Shown one piece after another: positions 1-50,380 of a stretch of DNA of 50,571 nucleotides. The DNA comes from Pseudomonadota bacterium. GTDB taxonomy: Bacteria; Myxococcota_A; Polyangia; Polyangiales; DASUME01. The notes beneath the pieces are model-generated. The model ran no database searches. It saw only the letters and a list, made by a program, of their open reading frames with translations, and was not told the DNA's origin. Where the stretch lies: positions 1 through 50,571 of the forward strand of contig JBEGTL010000002.1 of NCBI GenBank assembly GCA_041179425.1. The letters are read 5' to 3'. The stretch's first letter is position 1; every line of letters begins with the position of its first letter. A program made the translations under genes and the position numbers.

Positions 1-122
1 GCCGCTGCGCGGCTCGGTATCGGTGTCAACTTTAATCGGCCCTCCATCCATATTCTATTACGTACGCGGCTTGCGGCCTCATAGCTATATAATAGGGATG
101 GACCCCCGATAAAGGTGGACAC
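1..122. repeat. Left copy of a perfect 122-bp inverted repeat (partner 38080-38201) with an AT-rich core
   Basis: The reverse complement of 1-122 equals 38080-38201, checked base by base. Identity stops at 123/38079, and the outer edge is cut by the window start. Internal imperfect IR arms 23-54 and 91-122 (25/32) flank core 55-90. TATAAT at 88-93. Confidence 0.95.
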
Positions 123-152: not shown

Positions 153-602
153 ATGCCCTTTCTGGACATCGACTGGGACGTAGCTTGCGCTGCTTTTCAA
201 GCCTCGCCGAGAACCCTCTATCACTTTTGCCTGGATAACGGCTGGAGCTTGCGTCTCCAGAGCGCGATGTTCGTGCAGCTCAAGCGGCGCGGTCTGGCTT
301 CCTTAGTGCCCAAGCCTGGTCATGCTGGTCGAACCTATCGAGAGCCACGCCCTGTGGCGGAGAAGAAGCCGCGAGGTCGTCCGCGCACCCCGCTGCGCCC
401 TGGTCAGCGTCAGGTGGTGGCCTCTGCGCTGCTCGAGGCGGGCTCACTGAGAGCGCTAGCGAAACTATTGGGAAAGAGCCCGACGATGGTGGCGCAGTAT
501 CGGGACCTGGAGTTGGGGCCGCCGGACGAAAACTGGTTGCAGCTGCTGAACTTACACCTAGCGCACACCCGGAGGGAGCGAAGCGACCAAGGGTGTGCCT
601 GA
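153..602 (+). CDS. DNA-binding protein with an AT-hook-like core (KKPRGRPRTP) and a probable HTH
   Basis: 149-aa ORF with good GC3. RGRP AT-hook core. C-terminal SLRALAKLLGKSPTMVAQY looks like an HTH. First gene downstream of the repeat. Confidence 0.55.
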   Translation: MPFLDIDWDVACAAFQASPRTLYHFCLDNGWSLRLQSAMFVQLKRRGLASLVPKPGHAGRTYREPRPVAEKKPRGRPRTPLRPGQRQVVASALLEAGSLRALAKLLGKSPTMVAQYRDLELGPPDENWLQLLNLHLAHTRRERSDQGCA

Positions 603-3582: not shown

Positions 3583-6132
3583 GTGGGCTGGGCTTATCCA
3601 GCACGAAAGCACCTCATGGACTCCAACTTCATCCGCGCATACATCGAGCGAAACGGTCTCCTAGCTTTCGTAGAGAAGTTCTGGCACGAGGCCGGCGAGG
3701 CCATCGAGCTCATCGTCGAGCCTCACATGGTGCTCATCTGCAAGCACCTGGAGGCGTGCGCCATCAACGGCACGCGCCAGCTCAAGCCAGAGACCAAGAA
3801 CCTGGCGTGGGTGCGCGCGGTGCCCGAGCCCATCGACTACCTGGTGATTGCTATCCCGCCCGGTATGTCGCAACCTCACAGCGAGCCCGTCCTGCTGGAG
3901 CGCGGGTGGGTCGGCATGGGTGACGTCCGTGTCGGAGACCGCATCTACGGTTCGGACGGCAAACTGCACGCGGTCACCGCGCTTCACCCCCAGGGACCCC
4001 GCAAGGTCTGGGAGCTGGAGTTCAGCGACGGCACCAAGGTGCGTTGTGACGGCGATCACTTGTGGACGCTGAAGAACCGCAATGGCACCGTACGCACGAA
4101 GACCGCGCGCGAGTGGGCGGGCTACCCGCTCAAAAAGACCAACGGAGGCGCCATGGCGTCCACGCTATTCGCCCCCATGGTCTCGCCCATCCAGCGCCCC
4201 GAGGCCGACCTACCTCTCGACCCCTACACGCTGGGGTTGCTGCTCGGCGACGGGTCGTTCACAGCCGGACAGAGCGCCAACTTCACCTCGGCCGACCCCG
4301 AGCTGGTCGACGCGCTGGTGCTGCCTGTGGGTCTCAAGAAGACGACCTACAGCAAGCCGGGCACAACCGCCGTCATGGTGTCGCTCACGACCGAGCGCGG
4401 CCAGGAGAACGGCCTGCTGGACGCCCTAGAGCACCTGGGGCTGCGCGGCAAGAACAGCCACACCAAGTTCATCCCCAGGATGTACCTGAGCGGCAGCATC
4501 GACCAGCGGCTGGCGTTGCTCCGAGGCATTCTGGACACGGATGGCACGCAGGTCGGCAGCTCGGCGCGAATCACGGTCGCCTCCAAGGCGCTGGCTGACG
4601 GCGTGGCCGAGCTGGTCGAGTCGCTGGGTGGCACCGCTTCGCGCCAGGAGCCGAACGGCTTCTACTCGGTCTACATCAACCTGGAGCAGAACCCCTTCAA
4701 GCTGGCGCGAAAGGCTGACTCGTTCACCAAGGCGGCGCACCAGCGCAAGCCGTACCGCGCTGTGGTCGCCATCCACGAGACCGAGGCCCTGGAAGAATGC
4801 TCCTGCATCACGGTCTCGGCCGAGGACTCGCTGTACGTGACCAAGCACCACGTCGTGACGCACAACTCGAAGTCCAAAATCGTCTCGGTCTTCTTCCCCG
4901 CGTGGGTTTGGACGTGGTGCCCCGGGGCCAAGTTCATCACCACCTCGTACGCCGACGACTTGGCCATCGACTTCGGCCGCCAGGCGTACGACGTCATGCG
5001 CTCGGAGAAGTACCGCTCCGCCTGGCCGGGCATGGAAATCGAGGAAGGCGACCGCGCGGCCATGTCCGACTACCGCAACTCCAAGGGTGGACGGCGCTGG
5101 TCGATGCCTATGGGCGGTAAGGTCACGGGTAAGCACGGCCACTTCTTGCTGAGTGATGACCCGGTCAAGCCCGACGACCTCAAGCTCGGCGGCGACAGCG
5201 CGCGCGAAGCGCTCAACCAGACCAAGTACCGCTGGGACGCGCTCTTCAGCAACCGCTCGGCGCACCCGCCCACCTTCACGCGCATCGTCATCGCGCAGCG
5301 CCTCCACTCGGAGGACCTGAGCGGACACGCCATCAAGCAGGGCGCCATCCACCTGCGCCTGCCGATGCTGTTCGAGCCCCATGACGCCTACGAGAGCGTG
5401 TGGGGAAACGACTGGCGCTCCGGGGAGGGGGAGCTGCTCGCGCCCGAGCGCTTCCCTCAAAACGTCGTCGACATGCGACAGCTCATCACTCCCGCGCGTG
5501 ACTTCGCCGCGCAGTACCAGCAGCGGCCGTCGCCCGAGGGCGGCGCGCACTTCCAGCGCGAGTGGTTCCTAAACAGGTACACGGGCACGCCGTGGGGGCA
5601 GGCGCCCATCATGCTCTCGGTAGACGCCTCCCACAAGGAGACCAAGAAGTCCGACTTCTTCGTACTTCAGGCGTGGGCCCGCCAGCGCGCTAACTACTAC
5701 CTCGTGGACCAAGTCCGCGCGCGGCTCGGCTTCACCGACCAGCTCACCGCCATCCTCACGATGAAGGCCAAGTGGGCGAACGTGAAGACCATACTCATCG
5801 AGGAGAAGGCGAACGGCGCCGCGCTAGTGAACGCGCTCAAGAAGAACGTGCCGGGCGTCATCGCCATCGAGCCCGACGGCGGCAAGGAGTCGCGCGCGGC
5901 CTCCACCACGTGGCTGTGGAAGAGCGGCTGCATCTGGCTGCCGGCGAACGCTGGCTGGCTGGGCGACTACGTTGAGGAGCACATCACGTTCCCGGTCGGC
6001 TCCTACGACGACCAGGTGGACTGCACCTCACAGCTCCTGAACTGGGCCTCGGCGAAGGACAAGCACACGCTTTTCCTGCAGGCCATGGCCGTCCAAGGGA
6101 AGAAGATGAACTCCCTTGACTGGCTGCTCTGA
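3583..6132 (+). CDS. terL: Terminase large subunit, interrupted by an intein
   Basis: The exteins read IAIPPGM|SKSKIVSVFFPAWVWTWCPGAKFITTSYADDLA, a Terminase_6-like P-loop region. C-terminal nuclease-like region. Lies directly upstream of the portal gene. Alternative start ATG 3616. Confidence 0.9.
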   Translation: MGWAYPARKHLMDSNFIRAYIERNGLLAFVEKFWHEAGEAIELIVEPHMVLICKHLEACAINGTRQLKPETKNLAWVRAVPEPIDYLVIAIPPGMSQPHSEPVLLERGWVGMGDVRVGDRIYGSDGKLHAVTALHPQGPRKVWELEFSDGTKVRCDGDHLWTLKNRNGTVRTKTAREWAGYPLKKTNGGAMASTLFAPMVSPIQRPEADLPLDPYTLGLLLGDGSFTAGQSANFTSADPELVDALVLPVGLKKTTYSKPGTTAVMVSLTTERGQENGLLDALEHLGLRGKNSHTKFIPRMYLSGSIDQRLALLRGILDTDGTQVGSSARITVASKALADGVAELVESLGGTASRQEPNGFYSVYINLEQNPFKLARKADSFTKAAHQRKPYRAVVAIHETEALEECSCITVSAEDSLYVTKHHVVTHNSKSKIVSVFFPAWVWTWCPGAKFITTSYADDLAIDFGRQAYDVMRSEKYRSAWPGMEIEEGDRAAMSDYRNSKGGRRWSMPMGGKVTGKHGHFLLSDDPVKPDDLKLGGDSAREALNQTKYRWDALFSNRSAHPPTFTRIVIAQRLHSEDLSGHAIKQGAIHLRLPMLFEPHDAYESVWGNDWRSGEGELLAPERFPQNVVDMRQLITPARDFAAQYQQRPSPEGGAHFQREWFLNRYTGTPWGQAPIMLSVDASHKETKKSDFFVLQAWARQRANYYLVDQVRARLGFTDQLTAILTMKAKWANVKTILIEEKANGAALVNALKKNVPGVIAIEPDGGKESRAASTTWLWKSGCIWLPANAGWLGDYVEEHITFPVGSYDDQVDCTSQLLNWASAKDKHTLFLQAMAVQGKKMNSLDWLL
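3868..4866 (+). mobile_element. Intein (333 aa) with LAGLIDADG homing endonuclease, inserted in the TerL P-loop
   Basis: Starts at Ser96 (SQPHSEPVLLERG aligns with block A). Block B is GDHLW. LAGLIDADG blocks are LLLGDGSF and LLRGILDTDGT. Block F is CSCITV. It ends VVTHN, followed by +1 Ser (4867). Confidence 0.8.
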
Positions 6133-34981: not shown

Positions 34982-35452
34982 ATGAGCCGCTTTCGTTCCG
35001 ATGAAATCACGCTGCTACTCCCGAGCTTCCAGCCGTACGTGCAGGCCGTGCTCGACGACATGACCGCGCAGGGATTCAAGCCCATCCTATTCGACGGTCT
35101 GCGGACGCCAGCCGAGGCGCTGCGCAACGCCAAGCGCGGCACCGGCAAGGTGCAATCGCCGCACCTGTACGGGCTCGCCGCAGACGTCATCTGCGATGAC
35201 CACGGGTGGAGCTGCCGCGAGAAGAAGTGCAAGTTCTACGCGAAGCTCGTGGCCGCCGTGCGCTCGCGCGGGCTCATCACCGGCGCAGACTTCCACAACG
35301 CGCAGGGCAAGCCCATGGTCGACGAGCCGCACTTCCAGGGCCTGCCGCCCGCGCAGGAGCGCAAGGTGCGTGAGCTCGGCATGAGCGACGAGTCCATCCC
35401 CGAGCGCGATGCTATCGTCGCCGCTTGGCTGAAGCAGCACGCTAAGCTCTGA
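34982..35452 (+). CDS. Peptidase M15 (VanY/D-Ala-D-Ala carboxypeptidase-like) endolysin
   Basis: The SPHLYGLAADV motif and a C-terminal HFQ motif. TAGGCT lies 7 nt upstream. Confidence 0.75.
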   Translation: MSRFRSDEITLLLPSFQPYVQAVLDDMTAQGFKPILFDGLRTPAEALRNAKRGTGKVQSPHLYGLAADVICDDHGWSCREKKCKFYAKLVAAVRSRGLITGADFHNAQGKPMVDEPHFQGLPPAQERKVRELGMSDESIPERDAIVAAWLKQHAKL

Positions 35453-35678
35453 GTACCTGACGCAGCGCGCGCACGTTGTTGCGCTCGCACAGCAGCGCGA
35501 TGGTGTCGCACTGCTCGTCGAACTCTGCGCGGTTGTTGTGCTCGAAGCTCCTGAGCATCTTGAAGCGGCTGGAGCCGTTGGTAGTGAGGTCCAGCAGCTC
35601 GGTGTACCAGAAGGTGTCACCGTCTTCATCCGCGTCGATGAAGCGCCGCACGATGTCGCGGTTGTCGATGGCAGTCAT
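35442..35678 (-). CDS. Hypothetical protein (78 aa)
   Basis: ATGA overlap with the upstream minus gene. Convergent 11-nt overlap with the endolysin gene. Confidence 0.45.
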   Translation of the reverse strand: MTAIDNRDIVRRFIDADEDGDTFWYTELLDLTTNGSSRFKMLRSFEHNNRAEFDEQCDTIALLCERNNVRALRQVLRA

Positions 35679-35842
35679 CCGCAGCTGCCCCGACACTCGG
35701 TGGAGCAGATGCTGTGGCCGGCGGGGTCGATGCGACACTTGGTGTGGCAGATGCAGCGAAGCCCGCGCTCCGCGTGGACAGGCTGCACGGGGAAGCACTG
35801 CACACTACAGAGCGCGAGCATCAGTAGAAACTTGGTCCTCAT
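35675..35842 (-). CDS. Secreted cysteine-rich mini-protein (55 aa, 8 Cys)
   Basis: AGGAGG lies before ATG 35842. MRTKFLLMLALCSVQCFPVQPVHA is signal-like, followed by ERGLRCICHTKCRIDPAGHSICSTECRGSCG. Confidence 0.5.
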   Translation of the reverse strand: MRTKFLLMLALCSVQCFPVQPVHAERGLRCICHTKCRIDPAGHSICSTECRGSCG

Positions 35843-35862
35843 AGGCCCCTCCTGTGGAGGAG

Positions 35863-35976
35863 CTACAGGGCTCCGTCCATCCAAGCCAACCATATCAAGA
35901 CCACTGACCAGAACGCAACAGCAATCACTCCGGCCACTGCGTATTCGGTGAGGCGCCACTTCAGCATCTTATTCAT
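35863..35976 (-). CDS. Tiny single-pass membrane protein (37 aa)
   Basis: MNKMLKWRLTEYAVAGVIAVAFWSVVLIWLAWMDGAL. Overlaps the upstream stop. Confidence 0.4.
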   Translation of the reverse strand: MNKMLKWRLTEYAVAGVIAVAFWSVVLIWLAWMDGAL

Positions 35977-36124
35977 GGTCGTCCTCAGGGTTCGGCACGG
36001 TCTCAGGGTCCAGCCAGTAGGCCAGCTTCTGCAGGTTGAAGGCGAGCAGCAGCAACACCTTGGCCGGGATGTACACCAGTGCGCACAGCACGAACACAAT
36101 GGCCAGCATCAGACGAGTCAGCAC
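35969..36124 (-). CDS. Small membrane protein (about 50 aa)
   Basis: GTG 36124 overlaps the upstream TGA. Hydrophobic LMLAIVFVLCALVYIPAKVLLLLAF followed by an acidic tail. Confidence 0.45.
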   Translation of the reverse strand: MLTRLMLAIVFVLCALVYIPAKVLLLLAFNLQKLAYWLDPETVPNPEDDHE

Positions 36125-36576
36125 AGCTCTGACTCCGTGGACAGCGTGGTGCCGTCCCATCCTGCGATGAGAGTGACCTTGCGGCCGGTGGTAAACTGGA
36201 AGAACCGAGCATCCTCGGGCTGGTACTCCGTCCAGAACTGAGACCATGGCCCGCGCAGCGTGAGGACCCAGTTCTCCTCATCGCGGCCGAACACCTGATG
36301 GAAACGCGACTTGAGCGTCTTGACGACGTCGCCCGCGCGGTAGTAGACGGTCTCGGTGTCGAACCCTCCGTTCGGGTACACGGTCTGCAGGACGAGCTCC
36401 TCGAGCCCTCCCTTGAGCACCAGTGAGATGGAGTGGAAGGCGTGAGTGTGGAAGGCTTCGCGCGAAACCTCGCCGACCTTCAGCAGCAGCAAGCTACCGA
36501 TGCGCTTCGACTCGAGACCCCACACCCAGACCTTCGACTCCGGTCCACCGTCTTTCGAGCCCCAGTGTAGTTTCAC
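36118..36576 (-). CDS. Hypothetical protein (HxH motif family common in phages)
   Basis: 152 aa. AFHTHAFHSISLVLKGGLEE resembles the HDHPW...IL.G.Y.E phage family. Confidence 0.55.
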   Translation of the reverse strand: MKLHWGSKDGGPESKVWVWGLESKRIGSLLLLKVGEVSREAFHTHAFHSISLVLKGGLEELVLQTVYPNGGFDTETVYYRAGDVVKTLKSRFHQVFGRDEENWVLTLRGPWSQFWTEYQPEDARFFQFTTGRKVTLIAGWDGTTLSTESELC

Positions 36577-36577
36577 G

Positions 36578-36910
36578 TTAGTTGCTCCGGCCCATCGCCT
36601 GGGAGGCGTGGAACAAGAAGGTGTTGGGGGTGAGCGCCACGTCGCCGTCGCGCAGCTGGTCGCGATGCTCGGCGCAGCGCTCCTTGGCGTCCGTGAGGAA
36701 CTCGGTGCGGAACGACGCGAGCTCGGTCTCCGAGACGCCGTGCAGTGCGAGCTGTTCGGTCCGCGCGTCGTAGACGAACGGGACGTCGAACGACTGGCCG
36801 TCCTCCGTGCTCATGCGGAACTCACCGACGCAGCCCTTGCGGCTGACCTCGGCGAAGTCGACGTCGCTGTATTCCAGGACGCCGTGTTTGGTTGGCTGGG
36901 GGTCTTTCAC
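36578..36910 (-). CDS. Hypothetical protein
   Basis: GTG 36910 overlaps the upstream TGA (GTGA); 110 aa. Confidence 0.45.
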   Translation of the reverse strand: MKDPQPTKHGVLEYSDVDFAEVSRKGCVGEFRMSTEDGQSFDVPFVYDARTEQLALHGVSETELASFRTEFLTDAKERCAEHRDQLRDGDVALTPNTFLFHASQAMGRSN

Positions 36911-37581
36911 TTGCTCTTCCTTCCGGTGGGTTTGCTCATTGCCACCTTGGTAAACTTGACGCCGGGGACACACGGCGGGTGCGTCTGGTTGCTCTCGTTG
37001 GCAATCTTAAGCACTTGGGCGATGCTCTTCTCGTTGAGAGTCAGGTGGCTGCGCGCCAGGGAGCTGGTCGACATGACCTCCACGTCGAACGACTCGACGT
37101 CCCAGATGATGCGCGTGCTGTTGCCCGCAAACTTCCACTTGTCGGGGATGGAGGCGAGCGCGTCGATGGTCGCGTCGTCGTCGCCGGCTGCGGATGCCGC
37201 TGCCGCGAGCTGGCGGGCCTCCACTGCCTTGCGGTCGCACGCCAAGGTGTAGGCGTTGACCTTGCCGTTCGCGAGCGCCTTGAAGGCCTCAGCCGCCTTG
37301 CGCGTGTCGCGGAAAGGCGCGCGGATGGTCTCCGCCTCGCGCTCGAGAGGCGCACACAACTCCTTGGGCTCCTCGGTGAGCGCCTTGACGCGCTCATGGG
37401 AGGCGTCGCGCTGCGCTATCCACCACTCGCACTCGTCCGCGCTTTCACACGGGACGTCCGCGTAGGCTTGCAGGCAGCTCTCCCACTGCTTGGCTTCCTC
37501 GGCGAGGGCCGTCTTGTCCACTGGTGCGATGGCCAGCTGTTTCATCTCTGCGGGGACGGGGCCTACGATGGCTTCGCTCAT
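36907..37581 (-). CDS. Hypothetical protein
   Basis: 224 aa, good GC3, overlaps the rusA stop. Confidence 0.55.
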   Translation of the reverse strand: MSEAIVGPVPAEMKQLAIAPVDKTALAEEAKQWESCLQAYADVPCESADECEWWIAQRDASHERVKALTEEPKELCAPLEREAETIRAPFRDTRKAAEAFKALANGKVNAYTLACDRKAVEARQLAAAASAAGDDDATIDALASIPDKWKFAGNSTRIIWDVESFDVEVMSTSSLARSHLTLNEKSIAQVLKIANESNQTHPPCVPGVKFTKVAMSKPTGRKSK

Positions 37582-38045
37582 GCCTTGAGCTTGCTCTTCA
37601 CTTTCGGCTTTTGCACGGGCAAAGTGCGAGTCGCGTGCGGGAGGATACTGACGAACACTCCCGCGTCGTCTTCCTCACGCGACGAGTACATCCGCTGTAC
37701 CGTCAGGTTCGCGACCTGCTTGTCGTCATCCCACACGTGCTTGTTCAGTGCATCGAGCACCGACTTGGCCACGTTGTCGATGTCGCTGTGCACGCCGTTC
37801 TCGAACGTAATCCAGATGTGCACCGTGTAGTCAGTATCGGTGCGCCAGTCCTCGGGCAGCTCGCACGCCTCTCGGACCTTCTTCTCGTACGCGAGAGTCT
37901 TCTCTGGGGTGAAGGTCTGCACGAACATCTTCTTGCCCTTGCGGCGGATGCTGAAGCGCGGCCGCTCCTTGCCCACCGGCTTGCCGGGCACCTCGAAGTT
38001 CAGGGGGCCCGGTTTCACGCGCACGTGTGGTTCTTCGATGAGCAT
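37578..38045 (-). CDS. rusA: RusA-family Holliday junction resolvase
   Basis: VPGKPVGKERPRF and DIDNVAKSVLDALNKHVWDDDKQV signatures. An alternative GTG at 38087 lies inside the repeat. Confidence 0.8.
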   Translation of the reverse strand: MLIEEPHVRVKPGPLNFEVPGKPVGKERPRFSIRRKGKKMFVQTFTPEKTLAYEKKVREACELPEDWRTDTDYTVHIWITFENGVHSDIDNVAKSVLDALNKHVWDDDKQVANLTVQRMYSSREEDDAGVFVSILPHATRTLPVQKPKVKSKLKA

Positions 38046-38079: not shown

Positions 38080-38201
38080 GTGTCCACCTTTATCGGGGGT
38101 CCATCCCTATTATATAGCTATGAGGCCGCAAGCCGCGTACGTAATAGAATATGGATGGAGGGCCGATTAAAGTTGACACCGATACCGAGCCGCGCAGCGG
38201 C
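38080..38201. repeat. Internal copy of the perfect 122-bp inverted repeat (partner 1-122)
   Basis: Exact reverse complement of 1-122. Lies between the divergent rusA operon and the primase-polymerase gene. Confidence 0.95.
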
Positions 38202-38249
38202 GCTGGGGGGCCCGCTGGGCCCCCACCGATACCGAGCCGCGCAGCGGCG
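38177..38249. repeat. Two 26-bp direct repeats (38177-38202 and 38224-38249) flanking a GC hairpin
   Basis: CACCGATACCGAGCCGCGCAGCGGCG occurs twice. Between them lies GGGGGCCC-GCT-GGGCCCCC (38206-38224). The first copy is the outer end of the 122-bp repeat. Confidence 0.9.
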
Positions 38250-38337
38250 AGGCCCTCTAGCTTCCACATACGGTCGAGAAATGACCCCCTAGGTGGACGG
38301 CGTCGGCTGCCCTGTTGCTTATCTGCAGGCAGAAGGG

Positions 38338-38343
38338 TAATCT
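38338..38343 (+). promoter_or_regulatory. -10-like TAATCT, 6 nt upstream of GTG 38350
   Basis: GGGTAATCTC is shared with the region upstream of ATG 679. Confidence 0.4.
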
Positions 38344-38349
38344 CGGGAC

Positions 38350-40899
38350 GTGCAGCACTCCGACCTCGCCTGGCTCGTTGTTCCAGGCTGGAAAGGCTCC
38401 AAGCTCATCTCGCGCTCGCAACAGCGCACCGGCAGCTGGGCCGACTTCGTCACCGACATCGGCGCCCACGTGGCCGGCGAGAAGGAAGGCCGCGCGGTCA
38501 TCCCCTTCCAGGCCGACTGGACCGACGGTGACACCCAGCCCCGCGCTGGCGCGCACGAGCTGCCTGGCGCGCGCTGGACCATCCTCAGCCTCGACCTCGA
38601 CGAGTGCACCGACGAGCAGATGGAGCTCGCGTGCGCCAAGCTCGACGAGCACCAGGTCTCCTACCTGTGCCACTCGACGCACAGCTACGACCCCGACGAG
38701 CGCATGAAGGCGCGCATCCACATCCCGCTGGCGGCAGCGCTGCTCGAAGCGCAGGTGAAGCCCACCAAGACGCGCCTGGCCGCCTGGCTAGGGCTCAAGA
38801 CCGACGCGGCGACCAAGGGGGGCCACACGCTCTTCTACACGCCGCGCTGCCCGCCTGAGCGGCTGCAGGACGCCTTCCTGTTGGTGCGCAGCGGCGGCCC
38901 GCTCTACCCCGAGCTCCTGCCATCCCTCGACTCTCTGCCCGAGACCGGCCGCGCCGCCGTGAAGCGCGCAAACCTGGTCGTGAAGGCGCGAGCGCGCGAG
39001 AGCTGGCCCGAGCCCGTGCGCACCAAAGCGGAGCTCGCGCTCGCTGACCTGTGCGAGCACATCGGCGAGCACACCGGCACGTCCATCCGCAACACGCTCA
39101 AAGGCGGCGTCGCCACCATCGCCGGCTACATCGCTTCCGGTCTTCTCGATGGTGCGGACGCGTACGGCAAGCTGCAAGCCGCAGTGAAGCTGCGCCACTC
39201 CTTCGGCGTGGATGACCAGGCGCTGGCGTACCGCCTCGAACAGATCGACGGCTTCATGGACTGGGGTGCCGCTCGTCCCATCGTGCCGTGGGGCTACGAT
39301 GCCAACGGCGAGGAAGTCCACAAGGCGCTCGACAAGCTCTCGACGCAGCTCGTAGACCAGCGCCCCGACCGCCTGTACACCGCGCCCGAGGCCGCCGAGG
39401 CGCTCTACGCCTTCCTCAGGAAGCAGCGCATGGCACTCCAGGGCCTCGGGCTGGTCGAGGTCAGCGTGGGCGTGGGCAAGACCTATGCTCTGCGGCAGCT
39501 GGCCAAGGAGAGGGCGGAGCGCGGCGAGTACACCATCATTCTGTCGCTCGACCACGGGCTGCTCGGTCAGATTCGCCGCGACCTCATCGAGGCGGGCGTC
39601 GCCGTGCGGCACCTGCACTCGCTCGTGCAGCCCGAGGCGCGCACCGGCTCGCCCGAGTGCTCCATCCGCGCGCGCCCTGACGTCGTAGCGATGCTCAAGC
39701 ACGGCGCCTCGCTCGCCGGCACGGTGTGCCCGAGCTGCGTGCACTTCCGCAACAACACGTGCCCAGCCATCGAGCACAACCGCCGCAAGCTGTCGGAGTA
39801 CGTGCTGCTCGCGCCCTACCCGCTCGCGCGCCGCGCCATCGACCTCATCCTTGAGCACGGCGACGGCGGTGGAGCCCTCATCGTGTGCGACGAGGAGCCG
39901 CCGGGGGCAGAGCGCGTCGAGCTCTCGCACGAGGCGGTGTCCGCTCTGCTCGACTCGCCCGACGAGTTCTGGCAGCTGTTGCGCTCCGACCAGGCGCATG
40001 TCGTCCAGTGCCTCGCGCAGAGCTTGAAGGACGGCGACCACGTGGACGCCCCGCGCGAACTGCTGGACGGCGCCATCGCCTACCACGGGCAGCTGCACGC
40101 CCCGTCCCTGACCGTGAACGACCTGAGGCGCTGGGAGTTCGAGATTGCGGCCACGCGCGCCGTGCTTGAGCTCGCCAAGGGATGGGACACGCTCAGGAGC
40201 GCGCTCGTCATGGTGCCCGACGTCGGACGCGTGCGAGTGTGGCGCGCTGAAATCGAGTGCGACGCCTGGCGCATCCTCAGCGAGGAAGGCGGCTTCGTCC
40301 TGAGCGCCACGCCCGACCCGCTGCGCTACGAGGAGTTCCCGCTGCTGGTCGACGAGCTCGTGCTGCGCGTGCAAGACGCCCAGCCAGCGCAGCGCACGCT
40401 GGTGTTCACGCTGCACGGCTCACGCCGGCAGGTGTTCGAGGACGGCGACGTCAAGTGGGACATCGTGGCGGACGACCTGCAGGCGCTGTTCCGGCTGGAG
40501 CCCACCGGGCGCATCTTGCTCGGCACCTACAAGGCCATCAGCGACGGCTTGAAGGGCGAGTACGCGCACCTCTTACAGGGCCGCGACGTGGCGCTCACGC
40601 ACTACGAGGTGGTGCGCGGACGTGATGACTGGCGCGACCGCGACGTGTTCTGCTCCCTGTACACACCGCGGCCCACACCGGACGACACCATCGCGGCGAA
40701 GGAGTCCACCGCACGCACCGACGCCGCAGCCTCCCGCGCGCTCGAACAGTTCCATGGCCGCGCCCGCGACCCGCAGCCACGCGAGAAGCCGGCTATTCAC
40801 TACTGCTTCGGCACGGTTGCGCCTCTGTCCTGGAACGACCTGAACAGCTCGGTGAAAAAACGTGGCGAGTTGTTTGACAGCGCACCGACCACGACATAA
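38350..40899 (+). CDS. Primase-polymerase (AEP-like) fused to a P-loop NTPase/helicase-like domain
   Basis: N-terminal ILSLDLDE and YLCHSTHSY are AEP motif I/II-like. Central VSVGVGKTYAL is a Walker A, and LIVCDEEP is Walker B-like. Confidence 0.6.
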   Translation: MQHSDLAWLVVPGWKGSKLISRSQQRTGSWADFVTDIGAHVAGEKEGRAVIPFQADWTDGDTQPRAGAHELPGARWTILSLDLDECTDEQMELACAKLDEHQVSYLCHSTHSYDPDERMKARIHIPLAAALLEAQVKPTKTRLAAWLGLKTDAATKGGHTLFYTPRCPPERLQDAFLLVRSGGPLYPELLPSLDSLPETGRAAVKRANLVVKARARESWPEPVRTKAELALADLCEHIGEHTGTSIRNTLKGGVATIAGYIASGLLDGADAYGKLQAAVKLRHSFGVDDQALAYRLEQIDGFMDWGAARPIVPWGYDANGEEVHKALDKLSTQLVDQRPDRLYTAPEAAEALYAFLRKQRMALQGLGLVEVSVGVGKTYALRQLAKERAERGEYTIILSLDHGLLGQIRRDLIEAGVAVRHLHSLVQPEARTGSPECSIRARPDVVAMLKHGASLAGTVCPSCVHFRNNTCPAIEHNRRKLSEYVLLAPYPLARRAIDLILEHGDGGGALIVCDEEPPGAERVELSHEAVSALLDSPDEFWQLLRSDQAHVVQCLAQSLKDGDHVDAPRELLDGAIAYHGQLHAPSLTVNDLRRWEFEIAATRAVLELAKGWDTLRSALVMVPDVGRVRVWRAEIECDAWRILSEEGGFVLSATPDPLRYEEFPLLVDELVLRVQDAQPAQRTLVFTLHGSRRQVFEDGDVKWDIVADDLQALFRLEPTGRILLGTYKAISDGLKGEYAHLLQGRDVALTHYEVVRGRDDWRDRDVFCSLYTPRPTPDDTIAAKESTARTDAAASRALEQFHGRARDPQPREKPAIHYCFGTVAPLSWNDLNSSVKKRGELFDSAPTTT

Positions 40900-40937
40900 G
40901 CTCTGAGTGCTGCTCCCCTCCTCCATGCTCCTCCCTT

Positions 40938-40973
40938 GAGCGCCCCGTCAGGATAACACTTGACGGGGCGCTC
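40938..40973 (+). terminator. Stem-loop after the primase gene (weak T tract)
   Basis: Perfect 13-bp stem GAGCGCCCCGTCA / TGACGGGGCGCTC, 10-nt loop, then CCCTTTG. Confidence 0.5.
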
Positions 40974-40994
40974 CCCTTTGCGTCACGCTGGGGC

Positions 40995-41189
40995 ATGGTC
41001 TACATCCCAGCCAAAGTTCTCGACGCAGCCTGCGCTGCATACGCCCGCGCTACCGGCACGTACCCCAACAGGGCGGGCCTGCGCTCGGCGCTCCACACCA
41101 TCAACGCTCAAGAGTCTCTCGACCGCGACGCAGCTCTGCTCGTCAAACGCGGGTCAGAGGGCCCCCACGCAGCACGGCCCAAACGATGA
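40995..41189 (+). CDS. Small hypothetical protein
   Basis: 64-aa ORF, moderate GC3. Confidence 0.35.
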   Translation: MVYIPAKVLDAACAAYARATGTYPNRAGLRSALHTINAQESLDRDAALLVKRGSEGPHAARPKR

Positions 41190-41392
41190 ACCGCTCGTTC
41201 ATCCGTTGTCTGGTTGCACTCGAGATGGCCGCCGGCCTGTTCGACGGTGGCGCCCAGGATGCGGGCATGGCAGCGTACGCCGAGGCGACGCGCATCATCG
41301 ACCAAGAGCTCACGCACCCGGAAGAGTTCCTACGAGCCTTCATCGAAGCTGAGCACGTCCTGCGCACCTACATCTGGAGACCTGAATGCTAG
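41186..41392 (+). CDS. Small hypothetical protein
   Basis: ATGA overlap; 68 aa. Confidence 0.4.
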   Translation: MNRSFIRCLVALEMAAGLFDGGAQDAGMAAYAEATRIIDQELTHPEEFLRAFIEAEHVLRTYIWRPEC

Positions 41393-41751
41393 CCAACATC
41401 ATCATGTTCGTCGGACTGCTCTGCTTCATCGCCGTGTTCGTCACGATGGTGGCTGCGTGCCGAATCTTCTTTACTCTGAAGCGTAAGGGCACGATGCTGG
41501 TCATCGAAGAGAGGCCCAAAGTGAAGTCCAACTCCAGCGTGCAGAACTTCTTCCAAATCGACGAGACCAACGAGCTCCTGTCGCGAGCGTTCGGTCCGGC
41601 CAACGTGAGCCGCAAGCTCGAGATGCCTCTGCATCTGGACGTCACGCTCGAAGCAGACGAGGCGTGGGAGACCGAAGAGCCCACCATCCAGCTGGCTCAG
41701 AGCGAAGTGCGCGCGCTGCTCCACACCGTCGCGACCACCAACCATGGCTAA
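41386..41751 (+). CDS. Membrane protein with N-terminal TM segment
   Basis: ANIIMFVGLLCFIAVFVTMVAA. Lower GC than its neighbours. Confidence 0.5.
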   Translation: MLANIIMFVGLLCFIAVFVTMVAACRIFFTLKRKGTMLVIEERPKVKSNSSVQNFFQIDETNELLSRAFGPANVSRKLEMPLHLDVTLEADEAWETEEPTIQLAQSEVRALLHTVATTNHG

Positions 41752-43576
41752 TCGCAGCGGCCAGTTCACGGCGCCGTTCCGGCTGCCGCTCTACAGCCCC
41801 AAGCAGCGCTCCGAAATCGGCGGCTGCATGGCGCGCTGGGGCGCCGCGCGCATGCTCGGCATCAAGGAGCCTCAGTCAGAGAAGATGGCCCGAGGCAACA
41901 ACCTCCACGGCGAGATGGAGGGCTGGGGTAAGTGCGCCACGATGCCCGTCTCCAAGGAGCCGCTGTCTATGATGAAGTACGCCCCGCCTCCGCGCTTCGC
42001 CGCGGTGGAGGTGCCGTGTCGCTTCGACATCACCGAGGGTGAGGGCACCTCGTGGTTCGGCTTCATCGACGCTGCCTACAGCTGGGTGAAGCACACCGGC
42101 CCACTCGCATCACCCGTCAAAGTGACCTCGAAAGGTCGCTGTGCGCGAGCGTACGGCAAGCCCGCCGGACGCCCCGCGCCGCTGGGCATGACGAACATCA
42201 TAGTCATCCACGACTACAAGTTCACGTCCAGCTTCGATTGGATGCTGTACCCCGAGCAGCTGAGTGTGGACTTCGCGGCGAACATGTACGCGTACGAAGC
42301 CTTCCAGGCGCTCGACGCCGCCGGCATGGGCGACGGCGAAGTCTGGTGCCGCTGGGTCTACTGTGAGTTCGACAGCGAGTCCCCCCGCGAGGTGTGGACT
42401 CAGATGGACCGAGCCTACTGTGAGAGCGTCATGCTGCAGGCGGACTCCGAAGCTGCGCGCGCGACCGCGCTGCGCGCCGAGTACCGCAAGCTGCGCACGG
42501 ATGAGGAGCGCGAAGCGTTCGTCTTCTCCTTGCCAAAAGACACCGAGCAATGTTTTAGTTACGGCAAGGAGTGTCCCGCGTTCGCGCGGTGCAAGCCGCA
42601 CATCGTGCCGAAGCGCATCACACTGAGGAGCCAAGCAGACATGGACGAGTTCGAAGCAGAGATGAACGCAAACTTCGCCAGCCAGGCGGCGCCCGCGGCC
42701 ACGAAACCTGCGCTACCCACCAAGCCCGGTCTGCCCCCGCTGCCTGGCCGCCGTGCGCCCGACACGCTCGGGTTCACGCCCACCGCGGAGCATCGCTTCG
42801 ACACCGGCACCGGCCAGCCGCTGGCCGACAACCCCAAGCCGGCGCTCCCCTCGCTGCCTGGCAAGCCTGCCCTGCCGGCACTGCCGGTCAAGCCCGCGCT
42901 GCCCTCGAAGCCCGTGACGTCTGCCGGCCCAGAAGACGACCTCACGGACGCCGAAGCCCAGCAGCTGGTCGACGAGTACATGGGCAAGAAGACGCCCGTG
43001 GGCGTGCCGGAGAGCGGCACCGTCAACCCCCCTGGCAACCCCTTCCCCGCGGCGCGCAGCCCCGAGGAAGCCGTGGCGAACGGCAACGTGCACACGCCTC
43101 CTCCCCAGACCGAGGTGGAGCCCGACGACCTGGAGGGCAAGACGTTGGTGGACCTCCGCCAAATCGCGGACGCCATCGGCGCCACGTACCTGCCCAAGGC
43201 CCGCACCGCGGGCGTGACGGCCGCCATCCGCGCGCGCCGAGCCGAGCTGCAGCTGCAGGGCGTGCTTTCGCCCGAGAGCGTAGCCGAGGTCATCAACGCT
43301 CAGGTGGACACCTCCTTCGAGGCAGAGGGTATCGTCTACGAGAGCGTCGAGGCCATGGAGCGCGAGCTCGCTGGACTCGAGGGTGCTGACCCGGTCAGCA
43401 GCGGAGCCTTCGACGGTGTGTTCGAGAAGCAGCTGGAGTCCATCCAGCAGCGCATCGCCGTGCGCGAGCACGTGGACGCCGTGGACACCGACCTCATCGC
43501 AGTGCGCGACCTGGGCGCGCTCGCGGCCCGGCTCAAGTGCCGAATCACGTTGACGTTCGAACCAGACGAAATCTGA
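41744..43576 (+). CDS. PD-(D/E)XK (Cas4/RecB-like) nuclease with proline-rich linker and SAP/Rho-N-like C-terminal segment
   Basis: FGFIDAAY...IVIHDYKFTS fits the D...D/ExK pattern. Cys cluster CFSYGKECPAFARC. KPALP repeats. TLVDLRQIADAIGATYLPKARTAGV. Confidence 0.65.
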   Translation: MANRSGQFTAPFRLPLYSPKQRSEIGGCMARWGAARMLGIKEPQSEKMARGNNLHGEMEGWGKCATMPVSKEPLSMMKYAPPPRFAAVEVPCRFDITEGEGTSWFGFIDAAYSWVKHTGPLASPVKVTSKGRCARAYGKPAGRPAPLGMTNIIVIHDYKFTSSFDWMLYPEQLSVDFAANMYAYEAFQALDAAGMGDGEVWCRWVYCEFDSESPREVWTQMDRAYCESVMLQADSEAARATALRAEYRKLRTDEEREAFVFSLPKDTEQCFSYGKECPAFARCKPHIVPKRITLRSQADMDEFEAEMNANFASQAAPAATKPALPTKPGLPPLPGRRAPDTLGFTPTAEHRFDTGTGQPLADNPKPALPSLPGKPALPALPVKPALPSKPVTSAGPEDDLTDAEAQQLVDEYMGKKTPVGVPESGTVNPPGNPFPAARSPEEAVANGNVHTPPPQTEVEPDDLEGKTLVDLRQIADAIGATYLPKARTAGVTAAIRARRAELQLQGVLSPESVAEVINAQVDTSFEAEGIVYESVEAMERELAGLEGADPVSSGAFDGVFEKQLESIQQRIAVREHVDAVDTDLIAVRDLGALAARLKCRITLTFEPDEI

Positions 43577-43701
43577 TGCCAGGCCACACTACAGGTCGCG
43601 TGCGCGGCCTTCTGCACTCGGGCTGCAACACAGCCCTGGGCTTGCTGTTGGAAGACCCGGAGAGAATCAAAGATCTGGTGCTGTACGCGCAGGCGCTGTA
43701 A
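43576..43701 (+). pseudogene. Endonuclease VII C-terminal remnant (41-aa ORF), absent from the ORF track
   Basis: MPGHTTGRVRGLLHSGCNTALGLLLEDPERIKDLVLY aligns with HETGLVRGVLCSLCNKGLG (14377 gene) and HGSGLVRGFLCNICNITLG (23749 gene). The N-terminal part of the domain is missing. Confidence 0.55.
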
Positions 43702-43710
43702 GCTCTGCTG

Positions 43711-45645
43711 GTGCCCATTCAGGTCTCCAGCAAGCTGAAAAAAAAACGTGACGAGTTCACGGCCACGGAAGAAGCTTCCCGCGAAGAGAAGCTCACCGAG
43801 GTGCCTGATGAGGCCGAGCTGCTCCGCATTCTGACGATGGCTCGACGGGAGGTCCCTGACCCCGAGAGCCCAGAAGCGGAGCAGCTCGCCGCGTTCATGA
43901 CGGGCAAGCTCGCCAAGTTGCCCATCGCGCAGCTCTACCCGGGCCCGTTGATGGCCACGCAGGCGCTCGCCCTGCGCGAGGGTAAGGTCTGCAAGGGCGG
44001 CTTCTTCCCCATCGTGGTGGGCGGCGGTAAGATGCTCACGTGTTACCTGATGGCCGCGCTCTACCTGGCGGCTGGCTACACGCGCATCATCTACGTCATC
44101 CCTGGCGACATGCGCAAGACGGTGAAGCGCGAGTTCAAGAAGTACCGCCAGTGCTGGCACGGGCCCACCGAGCTGCAGCTGCGTGTCGTCTCGTACGAGG
44201 AAATCTCCAACGAGGCGAACGCAGAGGAGCTCGACGACCACGGGCGCGTCACCAAGCCGTCGCTGCTAGACAAGCTGCAGCCTCAGGTCGTCATCTTCGA
44301 CGAGGTGCACAACACCTCGAACACCGGCGCTGCTGTCACCAAGCGCATGAACCACCGCATGCGCCGCGCGCCCGACACCATCTGCCTGGCGTTCACGGGC
44401 ACGCCCTTCAACGAGGGCATCCAAGACGCCGCGCACATCCTGGACTGGTGTCTCAAGGAGAACAGCCCTCTGCCCCGCCCGAGCGTGCGCGGCACGTACA
44501 AGACTCTGCAGGCGTGGGGAGGCTACCTCAACGCCAAGGAGGGCTTCGGCCGCGTGGAGCTCGGCGCGCTCGCGCGCTACGGCGAGCTGTACGATGAAGA
44601 CCTCGACGTCTACAACGCGGATGCGGACTACCAGAACGAGATGATGCACCGCGTGCGCCGCCTAGTGGCGAGACGCATCCTGGAGACGCCTGGCGTCATC
44701 GGCACGCGCGACGCACCGCTGGACGTCCCGCTCACCATCGAGCCCTTGTACCCCCGCCTCGACTGCGCGGACACCGCTGTTGCGTATGCCGCGATGATGA
44801 ACGAGGGCGTGCTGCCCGACGGCACCGAGCAGCCCGATGACATCTCGGTGGCCCGCCACCTGAGCACCATGGGCTACAACTTCTGGTCCAAGTGGGTGCC
44901 GGACCCGCCACAGGAGTGGAAGCTCGACCGCAACGGCTGGAACAAGTGGTGCAGGCGCGCGCTCAAGTACAACAAGCACCGCCTGACGTCGGAGAAGACC
45001 GTCAAGAACGCCATCAAGAAAGGCCTCTACAAGGAGGTCGGCCTGCCCACGCTGCAGCGCTGGGAGAACAGCGCGCGCCTGTACTTCGAGACCACCGGCA
45101 ACAAGGAGCCGCCATCGCAGCCCCAGTGGCTGGGCGACGGCGCCGAGGTGGTCGACGCGTGCCGGCACTGGCTCTCCAAGTACGGCGACCGTGGTCTCAT
45201 CTGGGTCAAGCACATCGGGCTCGGCGAGCTGCTGTCGAAGGAGCTGGGCATACCGTACTACGGCGCGGGTGGCGGCAAGAACTCCAAGACGGGCGTGCTT
45301 ATTATGGACCACCCCGGTGGCCCTGCCATCGCCTCCATCGACGCGTGCGGCACCGGCAAGAACCTGCAGTATCTGTTTTCGGACAACTTGTGGCTTTGCA
45401 TACCGGGGGAGCAATCCCTGGCGCGCACTCACCGCATGGGGCAGCCGGCCAAGGTAGTGCGGAACTTTATCTACCTGGGATGCTATCAGCACTTGGCCGC
45501 GTTCGAGAGAGCTCGAGACGTGAAGGCGACGTTCGCCGAGGACATGACACTCAGCCCCCAGAAGCTGAAGTATGCGCACACTGTGATGCCCTCTGCGGGC
45601 GAGCTGCGGCAGCGCGGCGGAGCTCGCTGGGAGCAACGTTTTTGA
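43711..45645 (+). CDS. SNF2/DEAD-like superfamily 2 helicase
   Basis: VVGGGKML is P-loop-like; VVIFDEVHNT is DExH. CGTGKNLQ and LARTHRMGQ are SNF2 motifs V/VI-like. TAAGCT lies 6 nt before the GTG. Confidence 0.75.
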   Translation: MPIQVSSKLKKKRDEFTATEEASREEKLTEVPDEAELLRILTMARREVPDPESPEAEQLAAFMTGKLAKLPIAQLYPGPLMATQALALREGKVCKGGFFPIVVGGGKMLTCYLMAALYLAAGYTRIIYVIPGDMRKTVKREFKKYRQCWHGPTELQLRVVSYEEISNEANAEELDDHGRVTKPSLLDKLQPQVVIFDEVHNTSNTGAAVTKRMNHRMRRAPDTICLAFTGTPFNEGIQDAAHILDWCLKENSPLPRPSVRGTYKTLQAWGGYLNAKEGFGRVELGALARYGELYDEDLDVYNADADYQNEMMHRVRRLVARRILETPGVIGTRDAPLDVPLTIEPLYPRLDCADTAVAYAAMMNEGVLPDGTEQPDDISVARHLSTMGYNFWSKWVPDPPQEWKLDRNGWNKWCRRALKYNKHRLTSEKTVKNAIKKGLYKEVGLPTLQRWENSARLYFETTGNKEPPSQPQWLGDGAEVVDACRHWLSKYGDRGLIWVKHIGLGELLSKELGIPYYGAGGGKNSKTGVLIMDHPGGPAIASIDACGTGKNLQYLFSDNLWLCIPGEQSLARTHRMGQPAKVVRNFIYLGCYQHLAAFERARDVKATFAEDMTLSPQKLKYAHTVMPSAGELRQRGGARWEQRF

Positions 45646-45725
45646 GTTGCACTGGGAGCGCAGCTATGAGAGCTTAGAACTCACCAAAGCCAAAAGCCAA
45701 ACAGCAACTACCGGAGACCGAAGAC

Positions 45726-46490
45726 ATGCCCATCGTAGTCAAATCGACCGAAGAACTCCCCGAGTCCAAGAGTTTCAACAAAACCCCCAAGGTGCACGAG
45801 CTCGGCAAGGGCGACTACATCTGCAAGGTCATGGACACGCGCTTCAACCCCTCGAACGAGCGGTTCAACGAGTCCTACTACATCGACCTCAAGGTCGTCG
45901 AAGGCCCCAAGGGCGTCGGCAGCGAGTGCCACTGGTGCAAGTACCCCCAGGACGCCAAGGGTGGCAAGAACAAGAAGACCGGCAAGCTCTTCACCGCGAA
46001 GCAGGCGCAGGCAGCTGACGAGGTTGCCGTGCAGAAGGCAACCGCAGCCATCTACGGCCTTGCTGCCAACGAGGCAGGCGAGCTCACGCAGGAGCAGATG
46101 GACGCCGCCTTCCCGCCGGACTCCGACCCGGAGACCCGCGAGCCCTTCACGTCGCCCGTCAACGGCCGGTTCGTCCGTGTGCGCGTGAAGACCTACACGA
46201 AGGACGACGGCACCGAGGGAGGCTTCGGCGAAATCTTCCCGTGTGACCGTGCGCCCGAGCCGGAGAAGGGCAAGGCTGCGCCCGCGGCTGCCAAGACCGA
46301 AGATAAGCCAGAGGCCAAGAAGCCCGCGCTCCCAGGCAAGCCGGCCGCCAAGAAGCCCTTCATCGAGGCCGCAGAGCTCGCGGGCTTCATCCCGTACGAT
46401 GGCAACCCCGGCTTCTTCCTGCGCCTTGAGGGCGGCGAGCCGGTCGAGGTCGTCGGCGAGTCCGACGTCAAGTCCAAGCTCGGATACTGA
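45726..46490 (+). CDS. Putative ssDNA-binding (DUF669-like) protein with Lys/Pro-rich C-terminal region
   Basis: Position in the replication module. GGAGACC before the ATG. The assignment is tentative. Confidence 0.35.
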   Translation: MPIVVKSTEELPESKSFNKTPKVHELGKGDYICKVMDTRFNPSNERFNESYYIDLKVVEGPKGVGSECHWCKYPQDAKGGKNKKTGKLFTAKQAQAADEVAVQKATAAIYGLAANEAGELTQEQMDAAFPPDSDPETREPFTSPVNGRFVRVRVKTYTKDDGTEGGFGEIFPCDRAPEPEKGKAAPAAAKTEDKPEAKKPALPGKPAAKKPFIEAAELAGFIPYDGNPGFFLRLEGGEPVEVVGESDVKSKLGY

Positions 46491-46559
46491 TTCTTCGCGA
46501 GCAAGTCAGGCGAGGGTACCGGCACGAGCCGGAGTACCGCTGACCTCTGCTCGCCTTTT

Positions 46560-46643
46560 GAGGGGGTCGCCTCGGTGGGCAGCTGCAGCTCTCTAGGCCG
46601 CTGTCTGCAGACAGCAAGCGACAAACACCGAGGCGACCCCCTC
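46560..46643. repeat. Nested palindromic element: 18-bp perfect inverted repeat enclosing a 16-bp palindrome
   Basis: GAGGGGGTCGCCTCGGTG (46560-46577) pairs with CACCGAGGCGACCCCCTC (46626-46643). Inner GCTGTCTGCAGACAGC at 46600-46615. Confidence 0.9.
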
Positions 46644-46667
46644 AGAAGCCATCAACAGGAGGATGAC

Positions 46668-47051
46668 GTGGGAGCACAGCTGAAGAAGATTGCGCGCAGG
46701 GCGGTTCGTGACGTGGAGGCGCTTGAGCGCATTCTACTGTCGCGCCAAGAGCTCAACACCACCGGCGAGCGCGTGCGTACCGCGCTCAATGGCAACACTC
46801 AGAGCGGCATGCGCCGCCGCGCCAAGAAAGCCATCGCGCTCGCTGCCTCGCGCATCAAGCCCGAGGTCGTGACCAAGACCATCTCGCACCCAAAGTTGCT
46901 GGGCCGCTTCGCGTACACGGCCACCACGCCGTTCGACGTCATCCCGGTGCAGACCATCAAGTGCACGGTGCCCTTCAAGGCGCCGCCGGTCGCCAGCGTG
47001 GCGCTGCAGTTCGCCCGAGCCCTGGGTGACAGCCGCCGCAAGACCGCCTGA
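46668..47051 (+). CDS. Hypothetical protein
   Basis: GTG 46668 lies after ACAGGAGGATGAC; 127 aa. Confidence 0.5.
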   Translation: MGAQLKKIARRAVRDVEALERILLSRQELNTTGERVRTALNGNTQSGMRRRAKKAIALAASRIKPEVVTKTISHPKLLGRFAYTATTPFDVIPVQTIKCTVPFKAPPVASVALQFARALGDSRRKTA

Positions 47052-47120
47052 GCAAAGCGCGCCCGGCGCGCGGGCGGAAGTTTCACCTGAACACCTGTAC
47101 AGTACAACCGAGGATAGCAC

Positions 47121-47738: not shown

Positions 47739-47878
47739 TAGAACCCGGAAGCCTCGTGAGGTTGCCGGATGGCTCGCAAGGCTACTACCAACTCACCGAA
47801 CCAAACGGTGATGCGGTGGTAGTGGTCTATGCGCGCGTGCCGGCCAAGGATTTGAAGCAGGAGAAGGAGCCCAAGTGA
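47735..47878 (+). CDS. Small SH3/KOW-like protein (47 aa)
   Basis: GTGA overlaps at both ends. PGSLVRLPDGSQGYYQLTEPNGDAVVVVY. Confidence 0.4.
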   Translation: MIEPGSLVRLPDGSQGYYQLTEPNGDAVVVVYARVPAKDLKQEKEPK

Positions 47879-49209: not shown

Positions 49210-49336
49210 TTCTACGCGAACGCTGCCTGATGGATTGAGCTTGCGGTATCGCGAGCGCTGGTAGAGACTCTCAGAGATGCACGTACCAAGCTGCTGGGGC
49301 TGGCCGGGCTGTGACGTCTGCCAAGAGGAGAAGAGC

Positions 49337-50338: not shown

Positions 50339-50380
50339 CTCGCGGCGCCGTAGTGGCGGGCGGTTCTGTTACTCTCCAGG

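Follow-up and report, generated by a model that had tools for sequence, protein, structure and literature searches.

A palindromic intergenic cassette in two identical, inverted copies at the heads of the packaging and resolvase operons of an uncultured tailed phage: a putative regulatory element under concerted evolution

The DNA analysed here (contig JBEGTL010000002.1, hereafter "the window") is an entire contig of 50,571 nt as held by JGI/IMG and NCBI, and its position 1 is a contig end. Its source is an uncultured, tailed, G+C-rich (about 65%) phage, which belongs to an undescribed, G+C-rich myovirus lineage without a cultured member. The subject of this study is a short cassette that is present twice in the window in opposite orientation: the left copy (E, 1-122, plus strand) stands before the late genes, and the internal copy (E', 38080-38201, minus strand) stands before a short operon headed by the Holliday-junction resolvase gene rusA. 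The late genes (153-35452, plus strand) encode the small terminase, an intein-bearing large terminase, the portal, the major capsid protein, E217-type cement and baseplate proteins and an endolysin. The rusA operon (35442-38045, minus strand) is convergent to them, and the early arm (38350-50571, plus strand) starts with a gene for an 849-aa protein that diverges from E'. A GNAT gene is cut by the right end of the window. Relatives of the 849-aa protein occur on contigs of 62-64 kb, so that about 12 kb of the phage genome are probably missing. A reading of the window as a closed circle was rejected, as the GNAT open reading frame (ORF) gains an implausible 37-codon tail when it is read over the junction from 50571 to 1. 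The search for tRNA and tmRNA genes found none.

Bases 1-122 are 100% identical to the reverse complement of 38080-38201, and the two copies bracket 37,957 nt. As the runner-up inverted repeat in the window is only 42 nt long at 71% identity, the match lies far beyond chance. Its inner limit is sharp at 122/123 and 38079/38080, where GCCCTTCG follows position 122 and TGGCGCCA follows the internal copy. The base comparison thus confirms the initial annotation, which had described a perfect 122-bp inverted repeat with a sharp inner end and had added that the repeat might be longer; the window being a whole contig, 122 bp is indeed a lower bound. The length may have been set by the assembler, since the MEGAHIT k-list used in JGI pipelines (…,103,123) includes k=123 and 122 equals k-1 (PMC6646334). 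The contig may stop at position 1 because the repeat exceeds 122 bp, because a physical genome end is nearby, or because of a coverage gap.

Searches with DNA did not recover the cassette elsewhere. Exact and degenerate arm patterns gave 0 matches in viral, genome and metagenome contig collections, megablast of both loci against GenBank phages gave no match, and Rfam returned nothing for the element at gathering and E-value thresholds. The search for the unit in related phages, as proposed earlier, succeeded only by protein-guided look-up, which identified two contigs of one close relative, whose flanking genes are about 94-100% identical to those of the window, from a single independent sample (L004 and L011, SRR30224763) and a third phage (L013). 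L004 covers the region from the homolog of gene 153, the first late gene, through the large terminase at 91-98% nucleotide identity to the window, and L011 spans rusA and the gene that follows it (about 96%); overall, the flanking genes of both contigs match the window at 91-99% (blastn segments) or in 43-50 per 50 aligned columns. On L004 a palindromic element (644-779) stops 30 nt before the gene-153 homolog, in the same place as E, which is cut by the contig end and stops 30 nt before the ATG of gene 153. On L011 the element stops 34-35 nt before rusA, and its inner junction (…CCCCCGATAAAGsTGGACAC/TGGCGCC…) is almost identical to that of E', which stops 34 nt before the rusA ATG at 38045. 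Of the two rusA starts considered originally, this ATG is kept by L011 and agrees with the database gene call, and the GTG at 38087 is discarded, as L011 has CTG there. Aligned with each other, the window and L004 elements reach a significant score of 57 against a shuffle maximum of 38, and the L004 and L011 elements are about 60% alike. In L013, whose gene-153 homolog is 44-47% identical, a palindrome of the same architecture ends 27 nt upstream of the start of that homolog. At all five loci (window twice, L004, L011 and L013) the elements are intergenic and stop 27-35 nt before a start codon. The recurrence of same-type elements at both junctions of an independent relative makes both window junctions native and an assembly artefact very unlikely; it also bears out the earlier description of one cassette deployed twice, in opposite orientation, at the head of an operon each. 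Judged from these comparisons, one element per operon head is the ancestral condition in the phage lineage.

The more distant relatives possess short inverted repeats of their own (27-35 nt, about 80%) between intergenic regions of a block of small genes, at 2569-2603/6309-6343 and 6232-6321 in L001 and at 3362-3388/7818-7844 in L002. Repeated intergenic motifs seem to be common in this phage family.

The cassette itself is a composite, as had been noted before: two imperfect inverted arms (23-54 and 91-122, 25 of 32 positions matching) surround a core with TATAAT at 88-93. An ungapped comparison of 27 nt gives 21 Watson-Crick pairs between the left half-site GTGTCAACTTTAATCGGCCCTCCATCC (23-49 on the plus strand, same sequence at 38153-38179 on the minus strand) and the right half-site GGATGGACCCCCGATAAAGGTGGACAC (96-122, plus; 38080-38106, minus). 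The outer 22 nt of the right arm are identical to the rusA-locus element of L011 at 21 positions. The core (50-95) contains TAGAAT facing outward (reverse complement of 52-57), TACGTA (59-64) and the operon-facing TATAAT; the TATAAT and TAGAAT hexamers are -10-like, stand back-to-back in mirror positions, and each is followed by the A(G/T)GGATGGA of an arm. In the 50.6 kb of 65% G+C sequence, TATAAT occurs in the two copies only. The impression that a 36-bp core is the most AT-rich stretch of the window is wrong, as 55-90 is only 50% A+T (top 3.8% of 36-nt windows, with a maximum of 23/36 elsewhere); it is the palindromic 100-bp unit (23-122) that ranks within the top 0.15% of 100-nt windows for A+T.

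The left copy begins, at the contig end, with a 25-nt direct-repeat unit, GCCGCTGCGCGGCTCGGTATCGGTG (1-25, plus strand), which recurs on the minus strand at 38177-38201 and 38224-38248. Between these two internal 25-mers lies a G+C hairpin, GGGGGCCCAGCGGGCCCCCC (38205-38224, minus strand). A comparable hairpin, GGGGCTCCTAAGGGGCC, is found upstream of the late-operon element of L004, and the similarity of the 38205-38224 stretch to L004 is not significant by itself. Further outward, 36 nt away from where the 849-aa gene starts, there is a truncated extra left arm with its flank (A0, CAGGGCAGCCGACGCCGTCCACCTAGGGGGTCATTTCT, 38277-38314, minus strand), which is nearly identical to the flank and left arm of the L004 late-operon element (score 52, shuffle maximum 40).

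Eight half-sites from four distinct elements yield the consensus GTCCAC-N4-6-AT(A/C)GGGGG-(T/C)C(C/T)ATC. For the pattern GTCCAC-N1-8-GGGGG, 5 matches are listed in the window where 0.36 are expected (0/100 shuffles), and they comprise the two cassettes, A0 and one overlapping intragenic pair only. The core varies in length, so that the outer motifs are 90 nt apart in the window, 100 nt in L004 and 125 nt in L011. Where the arms have changed, they have changed on both sides: L013 has GTGTAAAC/GTTTACAC in place of the GTGTCCAC/GTGGACAC of the others (CC/GG to AA/TT), and L004 has ATAGGGGG/CCCCCTAT in place of ATCGGGGG/CCCCCGAT (C-G to A-T). As far as these alignments tell, palindromic symmetry is maintained via compensatory changes. 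Just past the stop codon of gene 153 (627-652), a tandem GTGGACA…GGTGGACAC pair resembles the outer arm motif and is conserved in L004 (1287-1311).

The elements have diverged far more than the genes that they precede. At both loci, identity to the close relative falls from about 96% in the flanks to about 50-60% inside the element, and the window element is a mosaic, with a left arm nearest to L013 (21/27), a core nearest to the late-type element of L004 (28/46) and a right arm nearest to the rusA-type element of L011 (22/27). The mosaic structure together with the drop in identity indicates that the two loci have exchanged sequence with each other and with other phages by recombination and gene conversion. 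Read in this comparative light, the perfect identity of the two window copies is a derived state that goes back to recent gene conversion or recombination between paralogous elements. The locus would thereby offer a clean comparative case of concerted evolution, in which paralogous regulatory elements that are about 60% alike in a relative have become identical.

What the cassette does is suggested by its place. Because the position at operon heads is conserved across phages, we read it as a promoter/operator, or as a promoter combined with a stem-loop as in the PeSL cassettes discussed below, and we consider it on balance somewhat probable that such a cassette, paired ancestrally and made identical here by gene conversion, is the whole explanation. 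From the head of both operons, a shared cassette would activate the Holliday-junction resolvase and the DNA-packaging genes jointly, and the internal copy may additionally serve the divergent primase-helicase operon that starts with the 849-aa gene. Recombination or gene conversion between the loci has rendered the copies identical over at least 122 bp, and homologous inversion of the intervening 38 kb could use the pair as its substrate. Resolvases debranch DNA ahead of packaging, as is established for T4 endonuclease VII and T7 gp3, and co-expression of resolvase and packaging genes matches this general need. The motif GTCCAC-N4-6-ATmGGGGG is thus a candidate cis-element that may couple Holliday-junction resolvase expression to DNA packaging.

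Several observations weigh against this interpretation. A sigma-70 promoter scan of both copies found no -35 hexamer and no promoter with both hexamers, and L004, L011 and L013 have not kept the -10-like hexamers (TACTAA, TACCAA, CTTTAG), so that the promoter call is based on the window genome alone. The arm spacing of 90, 100 and 125 nt keeps no constant helical phase, and a hairpin accounts for it no less well than two operator sites would. As a candidate regulator, the gene-153 protein has only sub-threshold helix-turn-helix signals and a low-confidence structural model. In the elements of L004 (668-782) and L011 (5-144), every arm mismatch is a C in the left arm against a T in the reverse-complemented right arm; these mismatches are compatible with G.U pairing exclusively on the strand antisense to the operon (8 vs 0, not all independent), which a promoter/operator acting on the sense strand does not predict. 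The distant relatives L001, L002, L009 and L010 lack the element, and it is therefore not essential to late transcription in the family. The initial annotation had spoken of a regulatory or origin cassette: the regulatory half is favoured by the conserved position, notwithstanding a promoter scan without -35, and the origin half is unsupported.

The finding is of a known type, namely repeated regulatory cassettes under concerted evolution, and neither an assembly error nor a new kind of system. By analogy, its closest described counterparts are the PeSL cassettes, or promoter-early stem-loops, of the T4-type phages phi1 and RB49, in which a promoter and a G/C-tract stem-loop stand immediately ahead of ORFs and which mediate recombination (Arbiol et al. 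2010, PMC2839356; PMC4122927). Both are short intergenic cassettes right before ORF starts, both combine promoter-like hexamers with a G-run/C-run stem-loop overlapping the -10 region, and both are repeated in the genome with copies that recombine. However, PeSLs have the full sigma-70 -35/-10 consensus, whereas the window cassette has a -10-like hexamer only, and they number about 50 per genome, mostly as direct repeats in hyperplastic regions, as compared to two inverted full copies and one truncated arm in the window. At about 100 bp, the palindrome of the window also far exceeds theirs in length and has a variable core; it belongs to an unrelated lineage of G+C-rich phages, and the cassette is known here from sequence alone. 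The lambda operators OL and OR likewise are related palindromic sites that head two oppositely oriented transcription units and are presumably read by one regulator, with which they co-diverge between phages. Operators of the lambda type are 17 bp long, stand at fixed distances and share no identity over more than 100 bp; here, arm spacing varies between the elements and the copies are identical over 122 bp.

Inverted repeats that bracket tens of kb of a tailed-phage genome have a precedent in Anabaena cyanophages (A-1(L), N-1, Elbi, A-Lf14 and others), where both isomers of invertible regions of about 30 kb were demonstrated by PCR and read mapping (bioRxiv 10.64898/2026.02.14.705889). There, too, orientation varies between related genomes, and in principle a dedicated recombinase is unnecessary. 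The repeats of the cyanophages measure 500-700 bp as against at least 122 bp in the window, and the inversion of the window with respect to its relatives cannot be mapped to both repeat copies. In the Mu G/Gin, P1 C/Cin and Salmonella Hin systems inverted repeats also flank a segment of a phage genome, but these systems use crossover sites of 26-34 bp, an adjacent serine invertase gene and tail-fibre segments of 3-4 kb. The window segment has 38 kb, its repeat is a full regulatory region, and no resolvase or integrase domain was detected in 37 Pfam-scanned ORFs.

Whether the copies are themselves the crossover sites of an inversion has to be weighed against the gene order of the relatives. In L002/L003, L009 and L010, the 849-aa gene occupies one strand and homologs of the regulator, the small and large terminases and the portal the other; these homologs lie 6.6-9 kb upstream, beyond the small-gene block. 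L001 has the same small-gene block and a conserved non-coding sequence. In the window, the corresponding genes share a strand with the 849-aa gene. Gene order in the window, as compared in this way, differs from that of five related contigs by an inversion with one breakpoint in 38202-38349, next to E'. A crossover between the identical copies that inverts the 38 kb between them (123-38079), once or as continuous isomers, would explain the opposite strand of the packaging genes in L002/L003, L009 and L010, the presence of A0 (late-type flank and left arm) beside the 849-aa gene outside E', as expected from an exchange of outer flanks, and the late-type/rusA-type mosaic of the window element. 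Such a crossover would be compatible with a regulatory role, and we consider it a doubtful possibility. A repeat longer than the assembler k-mer would moreover leave the orientation of the segment in the contig arbitrary, and isomerism flanked by inverted repeats is reported in tailed phages (bioRxiv 10.64898/2026.02.14.705889). However, with 123-38079 flipped, the distance between late operon and 849-aa gene would be about 300 bp, and the arrangement would have neither the small-gene block nor the conserved non-coding sequence, which stands ahead of the late operon in L004, L013, L002, L001 and L009 and is absent from the window. Contigs with the opposite orientation are devoid of the element and have 6.6-9 kb of extra genes at the junction, so that only one breakpoint maps beside E'. 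One inversion confined to the early arm, from the 849-aa gene to GNAT, with only one breakpoint beside E' is simpler or at least as parsimonious, and Pfam detected no site-specific recombinase among the 37 ORFs scanned (about 12 kb of the genome being missing). A reversible flip of the complete packaging, structural, lysis and rusA block, with two isomers in which each cassette keeps its operon expressed from its own promoter and with a contig end due to graph ambiguity, appears to us rather unlikely. The earlier suggestion that the pair is a substrate for inverting 38 kb gains circumstantial support only, from the clear sequence exchange between the copies and from a gene order inverted with respect to the relatives; the breakpoints cannot be placed on both copies. 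For synteny and taxonomy the orientation of the 38-kb block in the public contig matters in any case, as it may be untrustworthy or biologically variable.

The symmetry of the arms could also be that of a hairpin in RNA or single-stranded DNA. It might insulate or attenuate transcription as a stem-loop, mark operon heads for processing of the RNase III type, or signal initiation on a single strand to the adjacent primase-helicase. In all three folded elements (window, L004, L011) the arms pair via GGGGG/CCCCC helices, with z-scores of -3.5, -2.4 and -1.4 on the sense and -3.1, -3.4 and -2.8 on the antisense strand; the loop varies in length while the arms are conserved, arm changes are compensatory, the G.U bias is confined to one strand (8 vs 0, not all independent), and PeSL stem-loops with their G/C tracts work as terminators. 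We nevertheless regard a hairpin function as unlikely, as neither arm has a U-tract after it, the window arms contain three C.C mismatches in the G-run, Rfam has no match, and the favoured strand is antisense to the operons, where a transcript is not expected; with only four distinct elements there is also little covariation power (RNAalifold kept 9 pairs, 2 of them compensatory). A replication-origin-type element would consist of iteron-like sites for the neighbouring primase-helicase. P4 with its ori and crr provides a likeness for such an element present twice. The location of E' directly upstream of the probable primase-helicase gene, the repeated half-sites with the 25-nt direct repeat and the G+C hairpin, and the AT-richer palindromic unit (top 0.15% of 100-nt windows) would fit this idea, to which we give little credence: the elements of L004 and L013 precede the late operon and are distant from any primase gene as far as the contigs reach, no such element accompanies the primase-helicase gene in relatives that have it at 46-64% identity, and the constant spacing to start codons (27-35 nt, five loci) points to a role in expression. 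Almost no credence is given to an assembly artefact, in which the contig end would have been built from the internal copy or from a chimeric fold-back. One copy does lie exactly at the contig end, and 122 is k-1 for MEGAHIT at the k=123 of JGI pipelines (PMC6646334), the contig being one held in JGI/IMG. But the k-1 overlap explains why the contig stops and not why the repeat exists, k-mers spanning 1-122 plus position 123 are specific to the left copy at k=123, and the junctions of E with gene 153 and of E' with rusA are reproduced, with homologous elements, in contigs of an independent sample. The refuting case named in the initial annotation, that one copy is an artefact, is by this recurrence in SRR30224763 largely set aside.

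Two further candidates were rejected. A miniature inverted-repeat transposable element (MITE) or another small mobile element does not fit, as identity runs 22 nt past the palindrome on one side, no target-site duplication is present at 122/123 versus 38079/38080, no dispersed copies exist in viral, genome and metagenome collections, and the elements of the relatives are at orthologous sites. A protelomerase target (telRL) or hairpin telomere does not fit either: the arms match in 25/32 positions only, the 46-bp core is not palindromic, and the motifs of the neighbouring 849-aa protein are of NTPase and primase-like type and not those of a recombinase.

The conserved non-coding sequence mentioned above, CCGGGGTAYCCYGRTGT…GGGGCTGCC…CGGGCTGCAGAAAAAAT, stands before the late operon in phages that share only about 50% protein identity. 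It was found in L004 (about 430-505), L013 (1-55), L009 (about 2399) and L007 (about 28-38) and as reverse complement in L002 (about 2900-2830) and L001 (about 1270-1195). The contigs L007 (63 kb) and L013 start at or beside it, and it is a candidate genome terminus or packaging signal.

Among the genes next to the two copies, gene 153 (153-602, plus strand) encodes a lineage-specific orphan protein of 149 aa with an RGRP AT-hook motif and weak helix-turn-helix signals. Homologs were found in L004 (78%) and L013 (44-47%) only, an exhaustive HMMER search with the protein found one other cluster only, and the AlphaFold model computed without an alignment reached a predicted local distance difference test score (pLDDT) of 57. 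No relatives in IMG/VR were found for this protein or for the 849-aa protein, the latter searched both as single sequence and as alignment. The rusA gene (37578-38045) heads the minus-strand operon; outside the lineage, the closest RusA contig (L012) belongs to an unrelated phage in which rusA lies directly upstream of the large terminase gene. The 849-aa gene (38350-40899, plus strand) is kept on 12 related contigs, and its DxD, H-x-T/S-H, Walker A GVGKT and DEEPP motifs and four cysteines are invariant. The protein has no match in Pfam, PHROG or PDB, nor by tblastn against phages; to judge from its motifs, it is probably a novel primase-helicase.

The large terminase gene (3583-6132) harbours a LAGLIDADG intein of about 332 aa at 3871-4866, an insert that is precisely missing from L004. 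An HNH endonuclease gene (595-1182, insert 695-1199) sits between gene 153 and the D5-like regulator (1179-1682), where L004 has 14 nt, and in relatives the head of the late operon is likewise surrounded by HNH or HNH-AP2 genes, though different ones. An endonuclease VII gene (PF02945, 14377-14916) in the middle of the head-gene block has counterparts at several other positions in relatives, which suggests a mobile or homing-type gene. Within the early arm, the genes at 47121-50338 specify a MazG-like pyrophosphatase, a protein similar to T5 A1 (phrog_1745, E=1.9e-132) and one whose N-terminal domain is that of a dATP/dGTP diphosphohydrolase (PF18909). A metagenome scan for the A1-like protein recovered only a 3-kb contig and a distant 55-kb contig. 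Taken together, the genes of this region hint at manipulation of the deoxynucleoside triphosphate pool or at modified DNA.

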